A stretch of DNA of 64,000 nucleotides from an uncultured Candidatus Saccharibacteria bacterium. GTDB lineage: Bacteria; Patescibacteriota; Dojkabacteria; SC72. Positions 7,106 to 30,896 of this stretch are shown here, piece after piece. The stretch spans positions 5,826 to 69,825 of the forward strand of contig CAZUDZ010000001.1 in the NCBI GenBank assembly GCA_964618765.1, read 5' to 3'. A program made the position numbers and the translations under genes. The notes under the pieces are model-generated. The model was not told the origin of the DNA, ran no database searches, and saw nothing but the letters and a program-made list of their open reading frames with translations. Position 1 is the stretch's first letter, and every line of letters starts with the position of its first letter.

Positions 7106-7819
7106 ATGGCAGTAACAGTTGAAGAAATTAAAGAATTAAGAGCTAAAACATCAGCTGGTATGGCTCTTTGTAAAGAAGCACTAGTTAAATCAGATGGAGA
7201 TATGGGTAAGGCTGTTGAGTACATAAACAAGAGGAGTGATGTTATTAGCCGATTAAGAAATTTAACTGGGGCAAAGATAGGATTATGTAAGTTAGCTTTT
7301 GAAGATGCGGGTAAAGATTTTGAGAAAGCAGTTGAAATTATAAAAGAAAGAGGATGGGATAAACCAGTAGGGGCAGAGGAAACAGAAAAAGCAGAGGGAA
7401 TCATAGAGGCATATGTTCATGGAAAAGATAAGCGATTAGCTGCTTTAGTAGAGATAAAGTGCAAAACAGACTTTGTTGCAAGAAATGAAGATTTTAGAGA
7501 ATTTGCTCACGAAGTAGTACTACAGGTCGCAGCAATGAAGCCTGAATATATATCGAAAGATGATATCTCAGAACCTGAGGTTGCTAAACTAAAAGACCTC
7601 TTCAAGAAGGAGGCCCAAGCAGAAGGCAGGCCTGGCAATATAATCGGCAAGATCGTGGAGGGTAAGTTAACAAAATACTATAGTGAGAAATGTTTACTTG
7701 AACAGAGGTGGTTTAAAGATGAGGAAAAAACTATAGGGAACCTCTTGGACACCGCCATTCAGAAATTAGGTGAGCCCATAGAGATATCGAGAATATTACT
7801 TTGGGAATTAGGTAAGTAA
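7106..7819 (+). CDS. tsf: Elongation factor Ts
   Basis: N-terminal UBA-like EEIKELRAKTSAGMALCKEAL and the EF-Ts core. It sits directly downstream of rpsB. Confidence 0.9.
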   Translation: MAVTVEEIKELRAKTSAGMALCKEALVKSDGDMGKAVEYINKRSDVISRLRNLTGAKIGLCKLAFEDAGKDFEKAVEIIKERGWDKPVGAEETEKAEGIIEAYVHGKDKRLAALVEIKCKTDFVARNEDFREFAHEVVLQVAAMKPEYISKDDISEPEVAKLKDLFKKEAQAEGRPGNIIGKIVEGKLTKYYSEKCLLEQRWFKDEEKTIGNLLDTAIQKLGEPIEISRILLWELGK

Positions 7820-7907
7820 TTATTAAAATTTCCTGTTTCATATATTTGTAATTTCTGAACACTTGTCAACCTCTCTCCATTGATATACAATTATTTGTTA
7901 ATAATAT

Positions 7908-8468
7908 TTGTATAAAGGCTTTATGAACGAAGATCTATTTAAAAAAGATATAGAGAAATGCATTGAATTTCTTCAAGAAGATCTCTCTCAAATTAGAACA
8001 GGAAGAGCAACTCCAGAACTGGTAGAAGAGGTTACTGTGAAGGCATATAACACAACATCTCCATTAAAGAATTTAGCAACAATTAGTATATTAGATGCTA
8101 AAAGTATAAATGTACAACCTTGGGACAAGGGTATTCTAGAGGATGTGGGGAAAGGTTTAGAAAGTGCTAATCTTGGTTTCTCTGTAATCATGGAAGGAGA
8201 AAGAGTCTTAGTTAAACTGCCAGATTTAACTGAGGAGAGAAGGAAAGAGTATGTAAAGATCATGAAAGAGAGGATTGAAGATGCAAGAGTAGCAGTAAGA
8301 CAAGTAAGACAGAAGTATATGAAGGAAATAGATGAAGAGGAGAAAGATGGTCTTTCTGAGGACATGGCAAGTAGACAGAGGGAGGATATAGAGAAAGTTG
8401 TAAAAGAGGTAAATGAAAGAATAGAAAGAATAAGAGAAGAGAAGGAAAAAGAGCTTACAACAATCTAA
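7908..8468 (+). CDS. frr: Ribosome recycling factor
   Basis: IRTGRATPELVEEV...LPDLTEERRKEY...ARVAVRQVRQ matches Frr along its full 186 aa. Confidence 0.9.
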   Translation: MYKGFMNEDLFKKDIEKCIEFLQEDLSQIRTGRATPELVEEVTVKAYNTTSPLKNLATISILDAKSINVQPWDKGILEDVGKGLESANLGFSVIMEGERVLVKLPDLTEERRKEYVKIMKERIEDARVAVRQVRQKYMKEIDEEEKDGLSEDMASRQREDIEKVVKEVNERIERIREEKEKELTTI

Positions 8469-8484
8469 ATTTTATTTGTAATAG

Positions 8485-9621
8485 ATGGTTTCCATTTTAA
8501 TAAACATAATTCTTTTCATCCTTGTAATAGGGTTTTTAACCTTTGTACATGAGTTAGGTCACTTCCTTGCTGCCAAGTCGATTGGGGCAAAGGTCTATGA
8601 ATTTTCATTAGGTTTTGGTCCTAAACTTCTTTCAAAGAAATATAAAGAGACTCTATACTGTATTAGAATCATTCCTTTGGGTGGATTTGTTAAGATATTG
8701 GGAGATGGTGATCCAAGTGAGTATGAAGGGAGTGTTAAGGATTTAGAGAATAGTAAATATAATTTAAACAATAAAAGTAAGATAGCTCAGATATTTGTTA
8801 TGTTGGCAGGTATCTTAATGAATATCTTGTTTGCAGTTGTCTTCTACTACGCAATCTTAGGACTTAATGGCTGGAAGAGTAATCCCATATATGTTGATTT
8901 AGAGAAAATAAATATAGTTGGTGCGAAGGTTGAGAAGGTAGTAGGTTATCAAGTTGTAGAGAAAGGGAATGCTTCTCAGGCAGGGTTGCCTACATACGGC
9001 ATAATTAAAGAGTTAGGGGGAGTAGAAGTCAATGACAAGGAGCAGCTAGTTGAGATGATCAAGGGTAGTGAGGAGGTTTCTCTTTTTGTTTGTGATGATT
9101 TGGAAGGTGAATGCAATGACTATACTGTAAAAGTAAATGGGGAGGGTCATATAGGGATATATATATCTCATGGTTTTGTTCTTAATTATGATGAAATGAA
9201 GGTTTTTGCTGGTCCTGTGTATTTGATAAATAATCTTAAAATTATAGGTAGAGTATTAGGTTCTTTAATAGGTTCAGCAAGAGAGACGGGTGATTACTCT
9301 GATCTTTCAAATACAGTGTCTGGCCCTATTGGCATATTTCTCTTAATAGATAGTTTGAAGGGCAGGGGTATAGTAGCGTTTCTTTCTTTAATAGCGGATC
9401 TTTCCATATCTCTAGCAATAATGAATCTTTTACCTATTCCTGCATTAGATGGGGGTAGGGTTATGATTGTAGTTTTGGAGGGGGTATTTAGAAAAAAGTT
9501 TAACGAGAAATTTAAAACGGTTGTTATTAACATCAGCATGGTATTGCTCATCCTGTTAGTGGTGTTGGTAATGGTTAAGGATGTTGTTAATATAGATAGT
9601 ATGAGGAGTATGTTTGAGTAG
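8485..9621 (+). CDS. rseP: Site-2 protease RseP-like M50 zinc metalloprotease with a PDZ domain
   Basis: HELGHFLAAK zinc motif in the first transmembrane (TM) helix, a central PDZ-like region, and a C-terminal LDGG motif (NLLPIPALDGGRV). Confidence 0.8.
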   Translation: MVSILINIILFILVIGFLTFVHELGHFLAAKSIGAKVYEFSLGFGPKLLSKKYKETLYCIRIIPLGGFVKILGDGDPSEYEGSVKDLENSKYNLNNKSKIAQIFVMLAGILMNILFAVVFYYAILGLNGWKSNPIYVDLEKINIVGAKVEKVVGYQVVEKGNASQAGLPTYGIIKELGGVEVNDKEQLVEMIKGSEEVSLFVCDDLEGECNDYTVKVNGEGHIGIYISHGFVLNYDEMKVFAGPVYLINNLKIIGRVLGSLIGSARETGDYSDLSNTVSGPIGIFLLIDSLKGRGIVAFLSLIADLSISLAIMNLLPIPALDGGRVMIVVLEGVFRKKFNEKFKTVVINISMVLLILLVVLVMVKDVVNIDSMRSMFE

Positions 9622-9682
9622 TGTAACTAAGTATAAAAGTGGGTGTAAAGTTTAGGTTGTTTGTTGTAATATAAGGATATAA

Positions 9683-11449
9683 ATGGAAATAAATCTGTCT
9701 AGTAAAAGAAGTAAATTAATAATCCTTATTATATTTTTTGTTATCTTTGCAGGTACAGGGGGATATCTGTTATGGAGAGTTAATCAACCTGAGAGTGTAG
9801 CTCCAGAGGACAGTGAGGCAGGAGGAGGTGCAGGTGCTTGTTGTATAGAGGGGATAGGGTGTGTAGCAGGATATCGATGTGATATGAAAGCCTCGTGTAC
9901 AGCCACTGAGAAAGCCTACGTTGGAGGCTATGGCCCCCCATGCGGAACCTCAAACGGGAAGACAGTTAATTGTAGAAGCTATTTCTACTGTCAAAATCCT
10001 GGTACTAATACCTGCGAACCTGAAGACTCAGCTAATTTGGGTACATGTCAGCCTCTAAGCCCTGGAACTCCTCCTTCGGAGGGTGATTGTAAGGACGTTA
10101 AGTGTGAATGGCCTAAGGTACTAATGAGTGGGAGATTGGATGCTAGTCAAGATGTGTGTAGATGTGAGTTATGTACTGGTAAAGTTGCAAATAATCCATA
10201 TTCTTGTGGTGGTAATCCTCCTACTTGTACTCCAGGCTCATGTCCCTCAGGAACAGTCTCTTGTGGAGACTCTACGAATCATGAAAGTGGTAGCGATTGT
10301 AAAAAGAAAAGCTCAATATCCTGTGTTACCTACCATCCAGATTGTAATAATTCGACATATGTATATAGATACTGTAAGCCCATGTCATCTACACCTCCAC
10401 CTACAAATGTCTGTGATGGTGGTAATTGGACAGGAAAACCCTCTGGAACATATCCATACTGTTCTAACATAGCATACAAATTTGTTGCCAAAGATTCTGA
10501 TGGTGTTAAAAAATCCTCCATAGTAGTTAAATTAAATGACACGGTTAGGACTAATTTAACTAAAAGTACAATAAAAGAGGCTGACAAGGAAGTTGAGGTA
10601 AAGGAAACACTCAGTACCTCTTCTGATTGTCTTAAACCAGGGGAGTATACAATTAAAGCTTCTTGGGCAGACACAAAAGACAAAACAGGTCCTGAATGTT
10701 CTCTTACTGCATCATTTACTGTCTTGGAAGAAGAGAAAAATCCAGATTGGGATATTAGTAAAAAAGTTACTGAGGTTTGTATAGATGAGAATACGGAAAA
10801 CCCTAAATCGAAGTTGCAGTATGTGGTAACAATTACAAATAGTGGGGAAGGAGCGGGTAAAATTACATCCATAGTAGACACATTAGACAGTAAAGTTCTT
10901 GAAGGATATATTGATAGCATAAGTGCTAATGGGAAGTTTCAAGGTGGGACAATAGTATGGCCTGTAGTGGCAGGTGATCAGGAATTTAATCCTGGACAGT
11001 CGAAAACATACACATACTCATACGTTGTACCTAGTACTGCTTTCGGGGTTTACAATAATACAGTAAAAGCAACCCCTGCTGTTGGGAATACTTTGATAGC
11101 TAATGCCACTATCTCTGCTGATTGTGAGGTTTTAGAACCAGAGGAAGAACCTGTACCCGATGAGGAGATACCAGTAGCTGAGGAGAGAGATCTTCCAGAA
11201 AGTGGTATCTTTGATGATTCTCAAGCCTCCATATTACTAGGGGTTGGTTTACTTCTTCTAGGTTTTACATGGAGGATTCTTGGTAGGGGTATGTATGTAT
11301 CTATTGAATTGTTAGGTAGTGTACCCAAGAAGGTATCTATACATATGAAGGATATAAAGGAGGATATAAGGGGAAGACAAAGGATTAGACTTTTACAAAA
11401 AAGAGAACAAAATAGAAAGAAATTTGAAAAGAGAGTAGTAAAGGAGTAG
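9683..11449 (+). CDS. Surface protein: N-terminal signal-anchor, Cys-rich region with about 45 Cys, a DUF11-like repeat domain, and a C-terminal LPESG + TM + extended basic tail
   Basis: N-terminal hydrophobic helix KLIILIIFFVIFAGTGGYLLW. DUF11-like segment ISKKVTEVC...VVTITNSGEGAGKITSIVDTLD. LPESG at 11192-11206 followed by ILLGVGLLLLGF, WRILGRG and a 60-aa K/R-rich tail. It is a paralog of the next gene. Confidence 0.8.
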   Translation: MEINLSSKRSKLIILIIFFVIFAGTGGYLLWRVNQPESVAPEDSEAGGGAGACCIEGIGCVAGYRCDMKASCTATEKAYVGGYGPPCGTSNGKTVNCRSYFYCQNPGTNTCEPEDSANLGTCQPLSPGTPPSEGDCKDVKCEWPKVLMSGRLDASQDVCRCELCTGKVANNPYSCGGNPPTCTPGSCPSGTVSCGDSTNHESGSDCKKKSSISCVTYHPDCNNSTYVYRYCKPMSSTPPPTNVCDGGNWTGKPSGTYPYCSNIAYKFVAKDSDGVKKSSIVVKLNDTVRTNLTKSTIKEADKEVEVKETLSTSSDCLKPGEYTIKASWADTKDKTGPECSLTASFTVLEEEKNPDWDISKKVTEVCIDENTENPKSKLQYVVTITNSGEGAGKITSIVDTLDSKVLEGYIDSISANGKFQGGTIVWPVVAGDQEFNPGQSKTYTYSYVVPSTAFGVYNNTVKATPAVGNTLIANATISADCEVLEPEEEPVPDEEIPVAEERDLPESGIFDDSQASILLGVGLLLLGFTWRILGRGMYVSIELLGSVPKKVSIHMKDIKEDIRGRQRIRLLQKREQNRKKFEKRVVKE

Positions 11450-22529: not shown

Positions 22530-23423
22530 ATGAGTCAGAATACAGTTTCAATAAAATTAACAGCAAATGAGGCAGAACTCTTAAAAGGAATTCTTTTGGA
22601 AAAGGGTTGGAATGAACAGGAGATAAATAATGAGTATATTGCTCTTAGGATGAAAAATGATGAAGGCTCTGTTTGTACACTGTATACTAGTATGAAAGTA
22701 GTTTTTCAAGGGAAAGAAGATTTCAAGGATATATTGGGAATATTGAAGGATACAGAAGAGGATATCAATATAGTGGCACACATAGGCGTAGATGAGGTTG
22801 GTAAGGGTGATTACTTTGGTCCTTTAGTTGTAGTGGCTTGTTTTGTAAATAAGGATTTCTTAAATCAGATTCAAGGATTAGGTATAGGAGACTCTAAGAA
22901 GATCTCAGATAGAAGAATAATTGATATTTATGAAGAAATAAAAGAGTACCCATACTATTATGTCTCCATTGTACATCCTAAGGAATACAACAGACAAATC
23001 AAAGAGCTTAAGAATGTATCTATCCTTCTAGCTAAGCAGCACTCCAAGGTTATAGAGATGGGACTGAAGGACTTGAAAGAGGAAAACATAGAATGTACAG
23101 AGGTTGTCATAGATCAATTCTCTTCAAAGAAGAGTAGGGTAGTTGATGAGTTAGGGCCATTGGCACAAAAGGTAAATTTTGTACAATACCATAAAGGGGA
23201 GTCAGATATAGCAGTAGGATGTGCATCTGTTCTTGCTAGAGCAATATTTCTAAGAGAGTTAGATGAAATGGGTCGTAAGTATTACTTTACATTTCCCAAG
23301 GGGGCTTCAGCTGTCATAGATACTGCTCGAGAATTTGTTAGGAAAAATGGAGCGAAAGAGTTAGAGAATGTAGCAAAAACAGGCTTTAAGACAACAAAGA
23401 AGGTTATACAGGATTCTTTTTAG
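22530..23423 (+). CDS. rnhC: Ribonuclease HIII-like: an ~80-aa N-terminal domain plus an RNase HII-fold catalytic domain
   Basis: Catalytic GVDEVGKGDYFGPLVVVA (DEDD family). The N-terminal extension and ~300 aa length fit RNase HIII better than HII. Confidence 0.7.
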   Translation: MSQNTVSIKLTANEAELLKGILLEKGWNEQEINNEYIALRMKNDEGSVCTLYTSMKVVFQGKEDFKDILGILKDTEEDINIVAHIGVDEVGKGDYFGPLVVVACFVNKDFLNQIQGLGIGDSKKISDRRIIDIYEEIKEYPYYYVSIVHPKEYNRQIKELKNVSILLAKQHSKVIEMGLKDLKEENIECTEVVIDQFSSKKSRVVDELGPLAQKVNFVQYHKGESDIAVGCASVLARAIFLRELDEMGRKYYFTFPKGASAVIDTAREFVRKNGAKELENVAKTGFKTTKKVIQDSF

Positions 23424-24321
23424 GCTTCTTTTTTGAAAAGAGTACTTTCAAAAATATCACAGTAAGAAGTAATCCTAGTCCTACAAGAAGAAGAACTGTA
23501 TAGTTTGGTTGAATAATTACTTCTTTGACTATAATATTCTCATCTATTCCATTATAGAATCTCCCAACGACGATTTTCTCAGAGAAAAAATCAGATAAAT
23601 GATAATCATCTATCTCAAACTCTTCTTCTAATAACCCCTGGGGGTATAATTTTTGTTGCTTCTCATTAATCTTTAAGTAAATTGGGGGATAGTCACCTCT
23701 CTTGCTATACAGCTGTATCTCTCCCATAGGATTTAATACATAGTTAGTGTCATTTTTGTAAGAATACTTTATTGTAGTAGGGGACATAAAAGGTACTCCC
23801 TTTTCTATAACCTGTATATCAATAGTAGCAAACTTACTACTGATCCCATAAATATCGCTTTCTGAGTCCACTATATGAAGTACAACCAGCTGTGAGAGGC
23901 TCTCTACTGTCCCTACAGGGCTTGTCTCAGTGACAAATGTATCTTCCATCTGTCTTTCTAAAACTATCAGATTGAAGTAAGTTCCTGGCTTCATATTCGC
24001 GATAGGGACAACCTCGTACTCAATCTCTAGAGTTTCTTTAGGTTTAACTTTAAATATCTCCTTGTCTGCTCGTGTGAAGATAATGCCGTTACTGTCGGTC
24101 ATTTCCAATGTTTCAGGGTCATATGAGTGCACTATTGGTGTAATGAGAACATCTTTCTTAGAATCATTTTCGAAGTAAACGGATCCCTTTGTTCTTTCTT
24201 CATTTGAGATTAGAATCTCATTTTTGTATGGGTATATTGTACCCGCAAAGACTTCTTTGTGCTGTAAAAAATTTAGCATCAACAAAAACAAAACTGTTAG
24301 GAATACTGTTTTGAACTTCAT
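23404..24321 (-). CDS. Surface protein with N-terminal signal peptide and C-terminal TM anchor plus Lys-rich tail (gene A of a 4-gene surface operon)
   Basis: Signal MKFKTVFLTVLFLLMLNFL...VFA and C-terminus LLLVGLGLLLTVIFLKVLFSKKKPKKNPV. It has the same topology as DUF916/CscA-like anchors. Confidence 0.7.
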   Translation of the reverse strand: MKFKTVFLTVLFLLMLNFLQHKEVFAGTIYPYKNEILISNEERTKGSVYFENDSKKDVLITPIVHSYDPETLEMTDSNGIIFTRADKEIFKVKPKETLEIEYEVVPIANMKPGTYFNLIVLERQMEDTFVTETSPVGTVESLSQLVVLHIVDSESDIYGISSKFATIDIQVIEKGVPFMSPTTIKYSYKNDTNYVLNPMGEIQLYSKRGDYPPIYLKINEKQQKLYPQGLLEEEFEIDDYHLSDFFSEKIVVGRFYNGIDENIIVKEVIIQPNYTVLLLVGLGLLLTVIFLKVLFSKKKPKKNPV

Positions 24322-24328
24322 ATGTTCC

Positions 24329-25357
24329 TTATTTAGGTAGATTTTCTGATTTCTTCTTCTCCTTCTTTTTCCTGAGGGTTACTATTAATATTGTTGTTAG
24401 GATTATTATTAATGCTAGTAGGATGTATCTCCAAGGTAATATCCAGAAGGAGGCAGTTGCACTCAGTGGTGCGAAACCTGGTTGGAATGTACGATACATT
24501 AATATCAAGTTAGCATCTATTGGCCCCATTATGAGTTTCTTGTTTGCACTTAAGAAAGAACCGTAGTCCCATGGAGTTTCGTATTCGGCTGTATTGCCTC
24601 TTAATATACTCTGTCCATTTTCATTAAATATTATCTTACCTACTTCTTGCTTAAAGATATTTGTTAAAATGATCTCTCCGACAGGGCTAATGTGTGTATC
24701 TCCTAGGTTGTTAATTCTAGTTTCAAACTTAACAGTAGGAGTTTCGTAGAAATTTCTGTCTGTTGTAAATTTTAGCAACTCTGCATTCTCGGTAAATTCA
24801 TCTCCGATTTTTATTAGGATAGGGGTTCCTGAAGAAAGAGAAGTAAAAGCAGCTGTCCCTCCAAGGGCCGAATCTGTTTCTGAGATAAAGGCTACTATTA
24901 CAGTATATTCTCCCTTTGTTATATTCTTGGGGACATTAATTTCATAGAAGATTTTCTCATTCTTGTTTGGTATCAAAGTAATCTTCTCCCTACTTACTTT
25001 GGTCCAAGAAGCAGCAGAGTAGAGTGCTTTCTCTTCTTCCTCTTCTGTGAACATAATGGCAGTACCAGGCTGGTTTTCAATCTGTCTAAAACCTCTTACA
25101 TATACATTGTAAGTAGTTGTTTCTTCTGAGAGATTCCATACAACGATTTCCCCTTCATACTTTTCTCCTATTTCTAACTGTAATTTTTCAGAAACAGGTG
25201 CAGTGCCGATGTTTAGAGTTGTTTGTGCGTTAGCAGCTTTGCTGAAGAAAAAGAGAAGTACAATTGAGAAAATTGTGGCTAAAGAAACTATTCGTTTGTA
25301 GTACCTTGGGGCAGAGTATAGATTTTGATTTTTCATAATTAGTAGTAACCGCCACAA
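24329..25357 (-). CDS. Surface protein with N-terminal signal peptide and C-terminal TM anchor plus KKKEKKK tail (gene B)
   Basis: Signal and helix at the N-terminus; C-terminus ILLALIIILTTILIVTLRKKKEKKKSENLPK. Its start overlaps the upstream gene by 19 nt. Confidence 0.7.
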   Translation of the reverse strand: MWRLLLIMKNQNLYSAPRYYKRIVSLATIFSIVLLFFFSKAANAQTTLNIGTAPVSEKLQLEIGEKYEGEIVVWNLSEETTTYNVYVRGFRQIENQPGTAIMFTEEEEEKALYSAASWTKVSREKITLIPNKNEKIFYEINVPKNITKGEYTVIVAFISETDSALGGTAAFTSLSSGTPILIKIGDEFTENAELLKFTTDRNFYETPTVKFETRINNLGDTHISPVGEIILTNIFKQEVGKIIFNENGQSILRGNTAEYETPWDYGSFLSANKKLIMGPIDANLILMYRTFQPGFAPLSATASFWILPWRYILLALIIILTTILIVTLRKKKEKKKSENLPK

Positions 25358-26460
25358 ACATATGTGACATACTCGTTATATGTTCCTGCTAAAGCTGCAG
25401 AATCTGCTCTTGCTCCATAAGTAATGCCTGCACTGTGGGCAGGTGCGGTAGGTGTAGTTTTATATAGTAGTAATTTAGCACCAGTTGCATTTGCTACTAT
25501 TCCTCCAAAAGTCGTAGGTGCTGTTACTTGAAAGTTAGCTGCTGTAGTTGCGCCTGAGGGTGTTGTTGAAACTACCAAGCCGAACCCCTTTGTATCTGAT
25601 CCAGAAAGGTCAACAGTTGTAGCCCCAGAGTTAAGCGTATATCCTGCTCCTGTGGAGTTATAAAGACCTGCGGTGGTACCGTTACCTTTCCCATATACAG
25701 CCCAATAGTAACCACTATTCGTAGAAGACGTACTAATTTGTGTCGCCTCTTCTTTTGTTACTAAGGCACCTCCGGGAAACAGAGTTCCTATGGATACTGT
25801 AGTAGGAGCTACCGTACAATTGATAGTAGGAGCTGCAGTTACGGTGGCAGACACTTGAACAGTATCTTCAGCGATAAGATAAACTCCAAAGGCTTTAGAA
25901 TCTAAATTGTCATCATCAGAGACCTGTATTGTTATAGTTTTGGATCCAGAGGTTGCAGCAGTTCCTAATCTTCCTGTGCCATTGGATACTTTAACCCCGT
26001 ATGTAGTCCCACTAGTAAGAGAGCCAACATTGGTTATGGTTATCCTATCTGTAGTAGCTCCACTACCGATGGCACAAGTAGCGGCAAGGGTACTAGCTGC
26101 TTTTACTGGAAGAGCTGTAGTTATATCATAACCTGTAACATCAGGAGCTCCTGTTGCAACTCCTGTTACTGTTAGTGCGCCTGCATTTCTACACCAGTTG
26201 GTATTATCACTTTTTGGAAATAGTATCTCAATTTCAAGGTTCTTAGCTTCTGCGAAGGCCTGGCTAGGAGTAACTGCGAGAACCATTTCAACCTCATTGT
26301 TTGTTTGTCCATTTAAACCTGCCTTAATTCTACTTAGAAAAAGGTATGTGCTACCAAGAGTCCCTGCTTGGGTCTTAAAGTTTGGAAACAGCATAACAAA
26401 GAAAAATGTAGAGACCAAAAAAATCATTACAACGGAAATCAGTTTGTTTTTTTTCATCAC
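25339..26460 (-). CDS. Secreted Thr/Gly/Ala/Ser-rich beta-rich protein with no C-terminal anchor (gene C)
   Basis: Signal MMKKNKLISVVMIFLVSTFFFVML, then a low-complexity T/G/A/S-rich sequence with alternating patterns typical of surface beta-sandwich or fibre proteins. It ends ...YVCGGYY. Confidence 0.7.
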   Translation of the reverse strand: MMKKNKLISVVMIFLVSTFFFVMLFPNFKTQAGTLGSTYLFLSRIKAGLNGQTNNEVEMVLAVTPSQAFAEAKNLEIEILFPKSDNTNWCRNAGALTVTGVATGAPDVTGYDITTALPVKAASTLAATCAIGSGATTDRITITNVGSLTSGTTYGVKVSNGTGRLGTAATSGSKTITIQVSDDDNLDSKAFGVYLIAEDTVQVSATVTAAPTINCTVAPTTVSIGTLFPGGALVTKEEATQISTSSTNSGYYWAVYGKGNGTTAGLYNSTGAGYTLNSGATTVDLSGSDTKGFGLVVSTTPSGATTAANFQVTAPTTFGGIVANATGAKLLLYKTTPTAPAHSAGITYGARADSAALAGTYNEYVTYVCGGYY

Positions 26461-26566
26461 TTGAATAGGGCAGACCTTTAATGTTAATTAATGGTAGTAA
26501 AAAGATAACTGATTAATTCTAATATGTCAAGAGGTTTTACAACCTCCTCCGTAGTATTAAAGTTAT

Positions 26567-27766
26567 CTAGTATCTGGGTACTAATATAAAATAAATTAAC
26601 TCAGAGTAGTCTGTAGCAGAAGTTCTACTTGTGGAGGCTCTAGCTTTTAGGTATATACCCATTCTGCCAGTATTAATAGGTCCATCTCCATCATAGATTT
26701 TTTTAGCATCAGTAGAAACCTCTCCAACTACATTCGCACTTCCTGCATAGTTTGTCATACTAGTTATCTCTCCTAAATATGTAGAAACTTCGTAGTCAAT
26801 ATAGTAATTTTGTAAACCGAAACCTTCAGCTGCAGAAGAATCTAAGTCGATATTGGTTGATGGAATTAATTCTGTTGTGGTTGTACTGTACAACCCTCCA
26901 TTCTTTCCATACTGTATGACAGCCATCCCGCCAGAAGAGCTACTATCTACATCTAACCATATTAAACTAGAAGAAGTAACAACAGCTGCACCTCCGATCA
27001 ATTTCTCTCCTCCTGAGAAAGATACTGTGTATGGGGGAGAGGATTCTGTACTGTATCCTGTGCTAGTAGCAATATCTATATCAAAAAATAACTTTGCTAA
27101 AGCTGTCTTAGCATTTACTGAAATACTTGGATCGGATTGCGTAAAATCACCGTGTAATGCTGATGTTCTAATGTAGTAGGTGGTGTCAGGTTCTAATCCT
27201 TTAATATTGAAAGTTTCATCCTCCCAATATGTTTCGGTTCTAAAGTCATTAATATTACAGTTACTAGCTACCTTAGGTTGAAAGGTAGATGCATCGACGC
27301 ATCTGAAATCAGAAACGAAATTATCTAGAGATACCTGTATACCGTATAGGGTGTCAGAAGGGTTACTGTGGGGCTCTATCTCGAACCTTGCCTTGTCGTA
27401 ACAACCATTTCCTCCACATATCGCTACCATTCCTCCACTTAATAGCTCTGTAGGACCGGAAGTGCAGTTAGTAGATCCGTTACTACTTGTTTCAAAGCAC
27501 TGTATGGAAGGTTGTGCAGCCACAAATGCGTTAGAGGGATCTTGATCTACTCTGTAGGAAGTAGAGTAATTTCTAGGGTTTGCAGTGAGTCTTCCTACTT
27601 CCGAGAGCATCTGGAAATTACTGGATTCTAAAGTTCCTCCACCGCCAGATGTAGATACTCCAACCATTTTGAAGTTGGTTGAGTCTAATTCATATGCAAA
27701 AAGATTAGTAGTAAAAAAAAGGATAGGGAGGAAAAGGAAAGGAATTAAGATATTAGCAGATTTCAT
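26567..27766 (-). CDS. Secreted protein with a duplicated S(T/S)NF(K/Q)M motif after the signal peptide (gene D, first in the operon)
   Basis: Signal MKSANILIPFLFLPILFFTTNLFA. The mature N-terminus is YELDSTNFKM...GGGGTLESSNFQM. It has several Cys pairs and no C-terminal anchor. Confidence 0.7.
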   Translation of the reverse strand: MKSANILIPFLFLPILFFTTNLFAYELDSTNFKMVGVSTSGGGGTLESSNFQMLSEVGRLTANPRNYSTSYRVDQDPSNAFVAAQPSIQCFETSSNGSTNCTSGPTELLSGGMVAICGGNGCYDKARFEIEPHSNPSDTLYGIQVSLDNFVSDFRCVDASTFQPKVASNCNINDFRTETYWEDETFNIKGLEPDTTYYIRTSALHGDFTQSDPSISVNAKTALAKLFFDIDIATSTGYSTESSPPYTVSFSGGEKLIGGAAVVTSSSLIWLDVDSSSSGGMAVIQYGKNGGLYSTTTTELIPSTNIDLDSSAAEGFGLQNYYIDYEVSTYLGEITSMTNYAGSANVVGEVSTDAKKIYDGDGPINTGRMGIYLKARASTSRTSATDYSELIYFILVPRY

Positions 27767-27827
27767 ATGTCAATCATATTGTAAAATATGTTAATTAGTC
27801 AAATTTTGATATAATTCTAAAAGTTTT

Positions 27828-27914
27828 GGAGAGGTGCCAGAGTGGTCGAATGGGACGGTCTTGAAAACCGTTGTACAGGTTTCTGTACCGTGGGTTCGAA
27901 TCCCACCCTCTCCG
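27828..27914 (+). tRNA. tRNA-Ser (anticodon TGA)
   Basis: GGAGAGG...CCTCTCC acceptor stem, anticodon loop CTTGAAA, long variable arm (TGTACAGGTTTCTGTACC), T-loop GGTTCGAATCC. 87 nt. Confidence 0.85.
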
Positions 27915-28022
27915 TTTGTTCGTAATCATAATGTTAATACTTCCCTCTTAATACTCTACATTATGTACTACAAGATTGGTAAGGTGGATTTTAAATTAAC
28001 TTTAGCATAAAATACCTACACA

Positions 28023-29663
28023 ATGACATCTGAAAACAAGAAACAGAAAGACTCATTTGTAACAAGCCGATATAAACCAAAGGATAGGGATGGTGGATTT
28101 CCTTCTTCTATGCCTCGTTGGCAAAGAAGATTCTTTGAAATAATGCCAGGCCTTTTTGTTTGGACACTACTATTACTTCCAGTAATATTTGCAGTACTAA
28201 AGTTTGATATCGGAATGGTTGTATACATGTCTTTTCTTGTTATGTATTGGCTTTTTAGAACCTTCAAACTACTCATCGGGGTATATATAGGAGTAAAGAG
28301 GATGACTCTGCAGAGTAAAACTGACTGGGTTGGTGAAATTGAGAAGTTAAATTCTCCTAAACAGAAAGATTTAAGATACATATATCTCTGTCCTGTCTAC
28401 GCAGAAACATTAGAAATATTAGAACCCTCTTTTGAGAGTTGGGCAAACAGTGATATTGGTGCAGAGAAAATCGATGTAGTAGTAGCAATGGAGGAAAAGA
28501 AGAAGGATTTGCAGATTGAGAACTTTAATAAGCTTAAGAAGAAATATGGAGACAGATTTGGAAGCATGACATACTACATTCATCCTGCTGGAATAGTTGG
28601 TGAAGTGGCGGGGGTAAAAGGAGCAAATATCAATTGGGCAGCAAGGCATTTTGTAGAGAAGCTAGAGAAAGAAAACAAGAACTTAAGAAACTATCTTTTA
28701 ATAACCTGCGATTCTGATTTAAGAGCGCATCCTAAATACCTTTCTGCTGTAACATATAAATATCTAACGGTAGAAGACCCGGAGCGTACCTTCTATGCCT
28801 CTGCGATTCACTCTTTTAACAACAACATTTGGAATGTTCCTCCAATAATTAGAACTCAATCCAATATGTTAACTTTAGTAGTTTTGCATCTTTGGGTTTT
28901 TGATAGGTCATATAAATTTCCTTTCACCCAAGACAGGGTATATACAAAAGACACATTCTCTTCTTACATAGTCAATTTAAACACTTTAAAAGAGATACAG
29001 TTCTGGGATCCTGAGATTCCAAATGATGATACTGCCTTCTACTGGAACTCAATACTTAGATCAAAAGGCGAGTTTAAAAGTCAGGAGGTGTATGTTCCTA
29101 CATATAATGATGCGGTAGAAAACAAAACATTTCTTCAATCTCACGTATCTTTTTACAAACAACAGTACAGGTGGGGCTGGGGAATTATCAATTTCCCAAT
29201 ATCCTTAGCAGTAATGTTTTCTGACAAAAAGGATTTTCCTGCTTACAGAAAGATGCTCATGTTAAAAATGATGTTTGACTACCTCTGGGTACTTACAGTT
29301 GTTTTTGTTCTTACATTTGGACTGAATATAGTGGGTTGGATAAATCCTTCTTACCAATATACTGTTTTTGCATACAATCTACCAAGAATTCTCAGCTATA
29401 TATTCACTGTAGTAGTGTTTCTTAACATTCCGTTGGTTCTGTTTAGAAGAAAGATAACCCCAATCCCTAAAAATTGGAAATGGTGGAGACATATTCTAGA
29501 TTTCTTAGAGACATTTCTAATTGCTGTAAATATGTTAACTTTTGCCTTCATCCCATATATCCAAGCGATTACAGAAATGATGCTAGGTAGAACTCGCTTT
29601 AAACGCAATTTCTATGTTACGGAGAAGGTTAGAATAGAGGGAAAGGAAAAAGGAGATAGTTAA
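28023..29663 (+). CDS. Polytopic membrane glycosyltransferase, family 2-like (cellulose-synthase-like topology)
   Basis: N-terminal TM helices, a central cytoplasmic GT-A-like region (CDSD, GxKGxNxN-like segment), then five or more C-terminal TM helices with a QxxRW-like segment (QQYRWGWG). Confidence 0.6.
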   Translation: MTSENKKQKDSFVTSRYKPKDRDGGFPSSMPRWQRRFFEIMPGLFVWTLLLLPVIFAVLKFDIGMVVYMSFLVMYWLFRTFKLLIGVYIGVKRMTLQSKTDWVGEIEKLNSPKQKDLRYIYLCPVYAETLEILEPSFESWANSDIGAEKIDVVVAMEEKKKDLQIENFNKLKKKYGDRFGSMTYYIHPAGIVGEVAGVKGANINWAARHFVEKLEKENKNLRNYLLITCDSDLRAHPKYLSAVTYKYLTVEDPERTFYASAIHSFNNNIWNVPPIIRTQSNMLTLVVLHLWVFDRSYKFPFTQDRVYTKDTFSSYIVNLNTLKEIQFWDPEIPNDDTAFYWNSILRSKGEFKSQEVYVPTYNDAVENKTFLQSHVSFYKQQYRWGWGIINFPISLAVMFSDKKDFPAYRKMLMLKMMFDYLWVLTVVFVLTFGLNIVGWINPSYQYTVFAYNLPRILSYIFTVVVFLNIPLVLFRRKITPIPKNWKWWRHILDFLETFLIAVNMLTFAFIPYIQAITEMMLGRTRFKRNFYVTEKVRIEGKEKGDS

Positions 29664-29720: not shown

Positions 29721-30896
29721 ATGCTTCTAATTCTCTTTTTTCTACTACTCCTCACATCGCCCATATATGGAGATGGTTTTGATATGATAGGCAACTGTAG
29801 TTTTAATAGATACAGGCAAACTACAGCTATTTCTCTGTTCTTTCTTCCGGAGAGTGTAAGTAACGGGAATTTTGGGATCTCTTACGATACGAACTTAGTA
29901 GAGGGTACTAAAACAGAAGATGTTTGGGAAAATATTTCTCTAGGGACTTTAACAGAGAATGATTATTGGAGAAGAATACCAGGAGTTTTAGATAATGTTA
30001 GTGGGCCTCCTGGGACTGAGATAGATATCCTGTATTTCTTTCTTAACCAGACAGGTCATGCAGTAGAGGTTAGTAAAATAGCTCTCCCTTTCAGCAGGAC
30101 AAATTTAGATCAAGGTAATTGGCTAAAGCTAGCCTCTATGTATGGAAATTCTCCAATATACAGGGAGATACCAATTCCTTGGGAGCAACTTGTTCTTGGG
30201 AGGAAATCTCTTACTAAAGAGTATTCAGGTCCTGGTCTACTATACGATGGGCAGGGAGGATCAGAAGTAGTAGATTCATTGACCATCTCGGATCCGATAC
30301 TAATTAAGGATATCCAAGTAGTAAGGCAGCAAGATGGAGTTAAGATAACACTTTGGTTAGAAAATATCACAACTGAACCCTTGGAGGATATTCTTTTAGA
30401 ACATTTTAAATATGTAAAGGAAGTAACAATTCCTGCTCTTGAAGAGATAGAGGTTAGCTATCTACTTAAGGATTTTTCTGGCTCTGAGGTATTAAGGATA
30501 ACGAATCCTAATAGTGCACAGGAGTGTATAATCTATGGTAATTCATTCTCTGATTGGACTAAGACAGAAGCAATAACAGTTCTAGCATACAGAGAGGATG
30601 GTGGATGGGTAAATGGTTCATATGTACAGCCTGAGGTTGAAAGTTTCTGTATTAGGCAAATACCATATACGACAAACATCATATTAAGAGGATACGAAGA
30701 TATGTGGGATGAAACAGCTGTAAGTCAAAAAGAAGAAAAAGAGACAGCAGAAGGGGAAGCTACAGAGGAGGAGAGTAGTGTTAAAGAAGATAAGGAAGAG
30801 ATATTAGGTATATCTAGAGAGGCCTTAGATGATCAGGGGGTGCGAATAAAGAGGGATAACTTTTTACTACCTAAAACAGGCGTGGTAATATATTAG
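29721..30896 (+). CDS. Secreted protein ending in LPKTG followed by only five residues
   Basis: Signal MLLILFFLLLLTSPIYG. The C-terminus is ...NFLLPKTGVVIY*, with LPKTG at 30867-30881. Confidence 0.65.
   Translation: MLLILFFLLLLTSPIYGDGFDMIGNCSFNRYRQTTAISLFFLPESVSNGNFGISYDTNLVEGTKTEDVWENISLGTLTENDYWRRIPGVLDNVSGPPGTEIDILYFFLNQTGHAVEVSKIALPFSRTNLDQGNWLKLASMYGNSPIYREIPIPWEQLVLGRKSLTKEYSGPGLLYDGQGGSEVVDSLTISDPILIKDIQVVRQQDGVKITLWLENITTEPLEDILLEHFKYVKEVTIPALEEIEVSYLLKDFSGSEVLRITNPNSAQECIIYGNSFSDWTKTEAITVLAYREDGGWVNGSYVQPEVESFCIRQIPYTTNIILRGYEDMWDETAVSQKEEKETAEGEATEEESSVKEDKEEILGISREALDDQGVRIKRDNFLLPKTGVVIY

Follow-up and report, generated by a model that had tools for sequence, protein, structure and literature searches.

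A 64-kb stretch of DNA (hereafter the window), whose list of open reading frames (ORFs) and translations supplied the gene coordinates, carries a cluster of four minus-strand genes, D, C, B and A, that appears to be a divergent and so far undescribed relative of the WxL/Csc surface complexes of Gram-positive bacteria. We read the cluster as a core, single-copy surface-complex locus of Dojkabacteria built on the WxL/Csc plan, its likely role being to attach to host cells or polymeric substrates, and consider this reading somewhat likelier to be true than false. The genes are:

26567-27766, minus strand: gene D, 399 residues; secreted, no anchor
25339-26460, minus strand: gene C, 373 residues from GTG, or 372 residues from an ATG one codon later
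24329-25336, minus strand: gene B, 335 residues from the ATG at 25336 (the longest ORF, 24329-25357, gives 342 residues from a TTG)
23404-24321, minus strand: gene A, 305 residues; signal peptide, C-terminal transmembrane (TM) helix at 23437-23499, SKKKPKK tail

All four ORFs are present in the ORF list where the initial annotation, made from the same letters, had placed them. Its anatomy of the products, with signal peptides throughout and a TM helix plus lysine tail confined to A and B, agrees with hydropathy: a 19-residue scan found an N-terminal hydrophobic segment in A, B, C and D and a second, C-terminal one only in A (residues ~275-295) and B (residues ~304-321). The tail of A reads SKKKPKKNPV and that of B RKKKEKKKSENLPK. 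No cysteine lies near the signal-peptide cleavage site of A, B, C or D, and a lipoprotein reading of the four was therefore ruled out, the lipobox cysteine being missing; A and B contain no cysteine in their entire sequences.

From the N-terminus, B comprises a signal peptide, two putative immunoglobulin-like (Ig-like) domains, the motif FWILPW, a TM helix and, as its tail, RKKKEKKK; two of its features were placed on the DNA:

24905..25183, minus strand: B DUF916 (PGBD-like) region matched by Pfam, residues 59-151 of the 342-residue reading
24374..24427, minus strand: B C-terminal TM helix, from hydropathy and sequence

The top Pfam match of B is PF06030 (WxLIP_PGBD, that is, DUF916; E = 1.7e-4), at 22.1 bits under the gathering threshold of 27.3. 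No NCBIfam family was assigned to B, A matched nothing in Pfam or NCBIfam, and a profile search of the B family against the PDB gave nothing significant. BLASTP found no similarity between A and B, and their relationship is visible only with profiles: the two families, taken from genome loci, aligned in hhalign at 98.9% (E = 2.9e-17, 215 columns), and their family hidden Markov models (HMMs) match reciprocally at ~1e-6. These comparisons indicate that A and B are paralogs, A being the divergent one. A reference set was assembled from seven annotated proteins (DUF916 or DUF916+DUF3324) on plasmids of Bacillus, Companilactobacillus, Paenibacillus, Clavibacter and Streptomyces. In hhalign the B family matched these references at 99.7% (E = 1.7e-25) over 248 columns across both Ig-like domains and the A family at 98.5% (E = 3.7e-15), and the reference HMM, run over the window ORFs, matched B at 3.4e-18 and A at 2.3e-5. 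Distant B-like proteins of other members of the candidate phyla radiation (CPR) likewise have PF06030 as their top Pfam match, two of them above the gathering score (44.5 and 31.2 bits). B aligns with the higher-scoring one (L076:9797-10852) by BLASTP at 2e-34 over 290 residues, an alignment that takes in the FWI(I/L)PW motif leading into the membrane helix. The DUF916-like character first proposed for the anchored proteins is thus borne out by the profiles and by CPR relatives that pass the PF06030 threshold, and these alignments place A and B in the DUF916/WxLIP family.

The secreted proteins C and D have no Pfam or NCBIfam assignment and no PDB relative in profile searches. Their homologs number 127 for C and 258 for D, the latter all hypothetical. 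C was described at the outset as rich in T, G, A and S, and the measured share is 47% (38% in D). AlphaFold2 models, built from alignments of 60-65 sequences, resolve C into a signal helix and two beta-sandwich domains with a predicted local distance difference test (pLDDT) score of 90.2; the model of D (pLDDT 80.8) has two domains, at residues ~74-222 and 225-399, and residues 1-73 fall below 50. The domains are:

25873..26370, minus strand: C N-terminal beta-sandwich domain, residues ~30-195; invariant C89, C128
25342..25818, minus strand: C C-terminal beta-sandwich domain ('WxL-analogous'), residues ~214-372; invariant C214, W252, C368
27101..27547, minus strand: D middle domain, residues 74-222; fn3-like, with weak fn3 signals; invariant C90, C101, C117, C122
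26570..27094, minus strand: D C-terminal beta-sandwich domain, residues 225-399; homologous to the C-terminal domain of C

Several comparisons link the two C-terminal domains. C and D match each other by BLASTP at E = 0.002, the C and D families align in hhalign at E = 7.7e-4 over 203 columns, and D of the window is matched by an HMM of the C-type C-terminal domain at E = 1e-9 and by the C-family HMM at 6e-6. These matches indicate that C and D share a C-terminal beta-sandwich domain of ~175 residues. In C its strands include GYYWAVYG, with the invariant W252, and YVTYVCGGYY, and the protein ends ...AGTYNEYVTYVCGGYY; in D they include GGMAVIQYG and LIYFILVPRY, and the protein ends ...SATDYSELIYFILVPRY. 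The invariant pair suggests a C214-C368 disulfide that would tie the first strand of the docking domain of C to the last. The C-family profile, searched against 1.84 billion representative proteins, retrieved only 201 at E <= 1e-3 and 135 at E <= 1e-10: the domain family is unannotated and restricted to the CPR. Its members include domain-only proteins of 205-214 residues and large proteins of 800-1280 residues with the domain at the C-terminus, both forms consistently lying beside a WxLIP-like gene; C and D of the window are both of the 'large' type, each with one extra N-terminal domain in the models.

The shared domain is not detectably a WxL domain. PF13731 (WxL) had no match in C or D (E <= 1-10) or in 20 CPR relatives (E <= 10), and it was absent among the 25 of 52 families listed at E <= 0.1 for 71 further distant members. 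An HMM built from 11 annotated WxL proteins detected the neighbours of actinobacterial DUF916 genes (Clavibacter, 1e-5; a Streptomyces RICIN protein, 1.5e-4), whereas CPR partners reached E ~1-5 only. CPR alignments of growing depth against the WxL set gave hhalign P = 0.004-0.4 and a probability of at most 11%, with only the last strand confidently aligned (alignments made with -glob were meaningless), and no WxL gene was returned when two CPR partners were searched by tblastn against 72,556 plasmids. One small relative gave a 12-bit match to the WxL HMM, confined to the last strand, and this was discounted.

By eye, the resemblance between the CPR and WxL proteins is suggestive. Canonical Bacillus WxL proteins contain ...GQGWTLQV... 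and finish in ...AGEYVSTLTWTLLDAP; in Paenibacillus and B. thuringiensis, annotated WxL proteins with Tyr or Phe for Trp read GEGYRVNV ... LTYSVVTGP and IAGTYKSVFTYTATSGI; and the CPR partner proteins read ...GY.VTV... and ...AGDYTNTLTYICT. Dual Trp-x-Leu motifs are absent from C and D, which have a similar pattern with no literal motif, and their strand sequences agree with the initial remark that the soluble members lack literal WxL motifs. We call the partner domain WxL-analogous; remote homology to WxL is possible but unproven.

The WxL/Csc clusters of Lactobacillales and Bacillales comprise CscA, a DUF916-DUF3324 'WxLIP'; CscB and CscC, small and large WxL proteins; and CscD, an LPXTG protein (Siezen 2006; PMC9772566; PMC10599100). 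The minimal cluster is a large and a small partner with a WxLIP anchor (PMC9772566, PMC10599100), and the formal definition asks for at least two WxL proteins within four genes of a WxLIP (Hassan, Chaudhuri & Williamson 2023). A WxLIP is defined by a signal peptide, a C-terminal TM segment and ~320-380 residues, with emphasis on an NQIDKxxxYFDLK motif (PMC10599100). More than 91% of WxL clusters and of the WxLIP family belong to Firmicutes, and no structure of a WxL domain or WxLIP had been solved according to the 2022-23 papers (PMC9772566).

The window cluster shares several of these traits. A and B are homologous to WxLIP and have the same architecture at 305-335 residues against 320-380, B having 335 and A, slightly short, 305; the anchored genes adjoin at least two secreted beta-sandwich proteins; and the CPR domain family includes small (domain-only) and large partner forms, a parallel by analogy only. 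The last-strand motif aG.Y...(L/V)T(Y/W)x(C/L) is also similar, some annotated Bacillus and Paenibacillus WxL proteins likewise having Y for W. In contrast to WxL/Csc clusters, the CPR partner domain is not detectably PF13731, so that no two PF13731 proteins lie within four genes of the anchors, and its last strand has Cys in place of Leu; two tandem WxLIP paralogs stand where one is usual; and the nearby LPXTG-type gene runs on the opposite strand, separated from D by tRNA-Ser and a glycosyltransferase-like gene, and has lost its membrane-spanning tail in this genome. The csc/WxL-like organisation claimed for the locus therefore stands as regards anchored WxLIP-like genes beside secreted beta-rich proteins and fails as regards a WxL domain in C or D. 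Likewise, of the profiles named for checking, DUF916 was recovered in A and B, and neither the DUF3324 Pfam family nor, in C and D, PF13731 was.

Compared with the Lactobacillales type, B is nearer to the DUF916 loci of Actinobacteria and Paenibacillus (Clavibacter, Streptomyces and Paenibacillus plasmids). A (V/L)PW motif entering the TM helix is common to B and their DUF916 proteins, and their partners are also poorly seen by the Pfam WxL family (the Clavibacter neighbour without a match, that of Paenibacillus at 30 bits).

The locus is conserved across its phylum. All 206 database relatives of B are hypothetical proteins, and the named ones belong to Candidatus Dojkabacteria, or candidate division WS6; the source organism is a member of Candidatus Dojkabacteria (WS6), within the CPR, as had been surmised from the look of the genome. 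In a conservation scan restricted to a single genome for each species, 218 genomes had a B relative, and the best 80 loci were mapped. HMM searches detected all four genes at 60 of these 80, the remaining 20 being contigs that end early or distant lineages, and tblastn showed the order D-C-B-A, then rnhC and cysS on the opposite strand, in every sufficiently long Dojkabacteria locus among them. On the far side lie a membrane protein resembling glycosyltransferase family 2 (GT2; in part of the phylum), a secreted protein of 391 residues and the CCA-adding enzyme. Within the window, HMM searches recovered each of the four families once only. In the genome of L017, two tandem copies of C are present (7604-9990).

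Because all four genes are kept in order at 60 of 80 loci, their association is more than chance; the cluster is neither absent nor scrambled in relatives, an outcome that the initial annotation had allowed for. That the four are mere neighbours, functionally unlinked, is very improbable: a possible separate promoter for D would fit it, and the order kept at those loci speaks against it, as does the pairing of C-like with B-like genes across distant CPR, seen in both search directions. Nor did the four resolve into unrelated known families such as generic lipoproteins, since A and B are assigned to DUF916/WxLIP, no lipobox exists, and searches with C and D return a fold class only.

The pairing in distant CPR was seen first from the side of B. 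The loci found in this way (L072-L080) have one to three B-like anchored genes beside one to four secreted proteins rich in T, G, A and S; their labels include CPR3 and Falkowbacteria, with some doubtful 'Gammaproteobacteria' or 'Nanoarchaeia'. The secreted partners end ...QEAG.Y...LTY(I/T)C(T)..(Y/F), an ending that is identical in C and looser in D, and the C family aligns with them over its full length at 99.1% in hhalign (E = 8e-19). The reciprocal search through small or large C-like proteins (L089-L092) gave three contexts, each with a larger and a small C-like gene followed directly by a B-like anchored gene that matches the family HMM at 1e-50 to 1e-64 and the DUF916 reference HMM at 4e-15 to 3e-21. 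The two kinds of gene are linked strictly across long evolutionary distances.

Several findings weigh against the surface-attachment reading on the WxL/Csc plan. PF11797 (DUF3324) has no Pfam match in A, B or ten CPR relatives, and against three canonical Firmicutes WxLIP proteins only the first domain of B aligns (hhalign, 96.2% over the DUF916 domain), the mixed reference alignment being the one that extends through the second. The NQIDKxxxYFDLK motif is absent from the B consensus and from A, the aligned residues in B being TAPVSEKLQLEIGE (hhalign). C and D are not detectably WxL domains by Pfam, HMM or hhalign. Finally, WxL clusters of Firmicutes are accessory and multi-copy, whereas this locus is core, single-copy in the window and hosted by a CPR bacterium; a single-copy, universally conserved locus among housekeeping genes could have a structural role in the envelope instead of one in adhesion.

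Such a role, in which the four proteins would form a wall-spanning or surface-layer-like sheet for envelope integrity and include no ligand-binding adhesin, is in our judgement quite unlikely. Fixed synteny beside cysS and rnhC throughout Dojkabacteria, the single copy in the window, the high conservation of B and D (62% and 65% mean column identity in their families) and the composition of C, typical of abundant surface proteins, are all consistent with it. Lineage-specific lectin insertions in D and the duplication of C, however, are more typical of binding proteins than of lattice subunits, and relatives carry dockerin, cohesin and Big adhesion modules.

Under the preferred surface-attachment reading, A-D would be exported by Sec, as their signal peptides suggest, and A and B would be tethered in the cytoplasmic membrane by the C-terminal helix and its positive-inside lysine tail, with their two DUF916/WxLIP-family Ig-like domains projecting into the wall zone. 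C and D would be released and then held non-covalently at the surface through the shared C-terminal domain, to judge from gene adjacency and the analogy with WxLIP-WxL pairs. The most likely means would be beta-strand augmentation by the A and B ectodomains: for WxLIP-WxL pairs, AlphaFold predicts that a WxLIP loop inserts into the WxL sandwich in this way (PMC10599100), and binding of DufA to SwpA/LwpA has been reported, as cited in the same source. The N-terminal domains of C and D would face outward as binding modules. D may be the variable ligand-binding member, because its Cys-bridged loop accepts concanavalin A-like (ConA-like) lectin domains in some lineages, and its disordered SxNYxL strands may dock onto C or onto A and B.

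These strands lie in an N-terminal extension that follows the signal peptide of D (residues 1-24):

27548..27694, minus strand: D N-terminal extension, residues 25-73; three S-x-N-F/Y-x-L/M strand-like repeats with Gly-rich linkers

The extension is predicted to be disordered in the monomer model. The duplicated S(T/S)NF(K/Q)M motif that the initial annotation had noticed here is real and conserved across the family, although the copies are three, not two: STNFKM, SSNFQM and STSYRV. The family consensus reads ELDSTNYKIVG..GGG..DSxNYSL....G.ISADPRNYSTNYRL, with S29, P64, Y67, S68 and Y71 invariant. Under a strict pattern, at least two copies within the first 100 residues occur in 33 of 1946 ORFs, among them 31 D orthologs and one small CPR3-cluster protein. 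The repeats are candidate donor or docking strands.

Donor strands would suit a fibre in which C polymerises like a pilus by strand exchange, D serves as tip or initiator, and A and B supply a chaperone and a base fixed in the membrane, making a monoderm analogue of the chaperone-usher system; we regard this as unlikely. Like class 5 (CFA/I) chaperone-usher and sortase pili, the cluster has Ig-like subunits, and D has a conserved, strand-like N-terminal extension. Foldseek searches of C and D against the PDB returned only tandem Ig-like adhesins and pilins, including ClfA, SdrD, FnBPA, Bap, Esp, PrgB, antigen I/II, CupB6, CfaE, CfaB, EbpB and integrin alpha legs; both proteins match the CFA/I pilins CfaB and CfaE and the tip adhesin CupB6. 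The strand motif aG.Y...lTY at the C-terminus resembles those of fimbrial subunits, and among the small relatives one gives a weak SCPU match (E = 0.83). A and B appear to have two Ig domains, as PapD-like chaperones do. The TM-scores, however, are low (0.1-0.4 overall, 0.2-0.4 for CfaB and CfaE), and many non-pilus adhesins appear in the same results, so that by these models Foldseek gives a fold class and no family. Only D has a disordered extension; the model of C is a complete, confident fold (pLDDT 90), and the invariant C214 and C368 suggest disulfide-locked first and last strands, which would argue against strand exchange. The cluster has no sortase or usher-like gene, and Pfam gave no usher or PapD-family match. 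Sortase-pilus and TasA-like readings were ruled out for want of motifs or matches: C ends ...CGGYY and D ends ...VPRY, neither with an LPXTG or pilin motif, and the only LPXTG-like gene is the one at 29721-30896.

In about ten lineages D has 627-652 residues and includes a ConA-like lectin domain, Laminin_G_3 (PF13385), at E values down to 3e-23; the insertion lies in the C90-C101 loop in some long orthologs and further downstream in others. An extra ~600 bp of coding sequence interrupts D in L002, L007, L024, L038, L057 and L067, where database orthologs have Laminin_G_3. In other CPR the N-terminal domain of C is fused to dockerin, Big_6, Big_13 or SpaA-type modules, Dockerin_1 occurs in 11 of 71 distant family members and Big_6 in 10 of 71, and a cohesin protein is present in two of the three gene orders of the reciprocal search. 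Cohesin- or dockerin-like genes of related CPR clusters lie at L089 5722-7479, L092 6644-8371, L089 3735-4766 and L092 4712-5740, and some C-termini there resemble dockerin repeats (...DLPDFSIMLYHWTG). These sequences hint at a cellulosome-style cohesin-dockerin assembly on CPR surfaces.

For csc clusters, a surface assembly that captures polysaccharides was originally proposed (Siezen et al. 2006, PMC1534035). An equivalent complex here, binding plant or microbial glycans for uptake, would accord with the lectin inserts of D orthologs, with dockerin and cohesin in related CPR clusters, and with the actinobacterial DUF916 genes, which adjoin GH43 and sugar ATP-binding cassette (ABC) transporter genes. 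It is nonetheless improbable, for no glycoside hydrolase or transporter adjoins the cluster, whose neighbours are cysS, rnhC, tRNA-Ser, the GT2-like membrane protein and the CCA-adding enzyme, and D of the window is without a lectin insert.

A bolder proposal goes beyond the preferred surface-attachment reading, and we hold it to be rather unlikely. The domain shared by C and D would be a new module for docking to the wall or to an anchor, taking the place of WxL across the CPR, and the cluster would be the conserved host-attachment organelle of Dojkabacteria, with A and B as chaperone-anchors and the SxNYxL strands of D driving strand-complemented assembly. If true, monoderms would have their own counterpart to chaperone-usher assembly, one on which the episymbiotic lifestyle depends.

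CPR bacteria are believed to spend their lives attached to other cells, and to our knowledge little is known of their attachment machinery apart from type IV pili. The cluster is one of few multi-gene surface loci universally conserved in a whole CPR phylum and offers an experimental handle on how such a phylum decorates its surface. It extends the DUF916/WxLIP anchor family into the CPR, where the anchors pair with a different, unannotated partner domain; this pairing points to the anchor, rather than the WxL domain, as the system's ancient and portable component. The novelty is accordingly of two kinds, the anchors being new members of a known family and the partner domain family being unannotated. 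C, and D with its lectin-accepting loop, are the host-binding candidates, and the interaction model is testable. A full-text search found no paper joining DUF916 with CPR, Patescibacteria, Saccharibacteria or Dojkabacteria, and the original wording, 'undescribed surface fibre or adhesion complex', is still a fair description.

At the level of the transcript, some earlier claims changed. The 19-nt overlap of B and C, from which co-translation had been concluded, is a longest-ORF artefact, as it needs the upstream TTG start of B: all B homologs start MKN... in the family consensus, a database gene call identical to B has 335 residues, and the ATG at 25336 lies 2 nt past the stop codon of C. The same spacing recurs in the nearest genomes (L001, L002, L003, L005, L006 and L009-L012). 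The junction is tight enough for coupling, yet there is no overlap. Two promoter-like sites were found by consensus scanning:

27773..27802, minus strand: TTGACT-18-TATGAT upstream of D, inference only
26502..26530, minus strand: TTGACA-17-TATCTT in the 106-nt spacer between D and C, inference only

The -10 hexamer of the first ends 6 nt before the D ATG, which makes a leaderless D mRNA possible, and the second is preceded by an 8-bp hairpin whose folding is not significant (z = -1.56). Promoter-like sites are no commoner in the region than in shuffled sequence. D may be a transcription unit apart from C-B-A if these sites act as promoters, which is a lead and no more; of the single four-gene operon first proposed, the conserved gene order stands.

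Two neighbouring genes lie beyond D:

28023-29663, plus strand: multi-pass membrane protein of 546 residues; weak GT2 match PF13632, E = 0.0012
29721-30896, plus strand: secreted protein of 391 residues, ending ...LPKTGVVIY

The first, located between the cluster and the LPXTG-type gene, is kept there in part of the phylum at 59-80% identity and might glycosylate surface proteins or wall polymers. In other Dojkabacteria, orthologs of the second show the classic layout of a sortase sorting signal, with a hydrophobic helix and then a basic tail after LP(K/Q)T(G/S/A/N); here and in several of the close relatives the chain ends a few residues past LPKT(G/A), and the signal looks degenerate.

Outside the CPR, the actinobacterial neighbours found by the WxL HMM lie at L081 5101-5727 (a Clavibacter 'hypothetical protein') and L087 2879-4810 (the C-terminus of a Streptomyces RICIN-domain protein), and on that match they appear to be unannotated actinobacterial WxL-like proteins. 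On a Deinococcus plasmid (L088 3851-9536), a DUF916-like protein without a TM anchor stands between small secreted proteins ending ...AVNFKLTGTF and ...AVLSWSVEAR and a CarboxypepD_reg protein of 1090 residues. This locus may represent the same theme in diderm form.

The only RNA family that Rfam found around the cluster is tRNA-Ser(tga) (27827-27915, plus strand), and Rfam and folding revealed no significant RNA structure in the intergenic regions. A sub-threshold match to 'Plastid-psbl-rps4 3UTR' at 27863-27914 (minus strand, 55 bits against 68), antisense to tRNA-Ser, is almost certainly spurious, a product of tRNA-like sequence in the model. Among L001-L080, many metagenome-assembled genomes have the Dojkabacteria locus and plainly belong to that lineage, although their record titles read 'uncultured Candidatus Saccharibacteria', and the titles of distant CPR-like loci give 'Gammaproteobacteria' or 'Nanoarchaeia'; taxonomic labels on such bulk-submitted genomes look unreliable.

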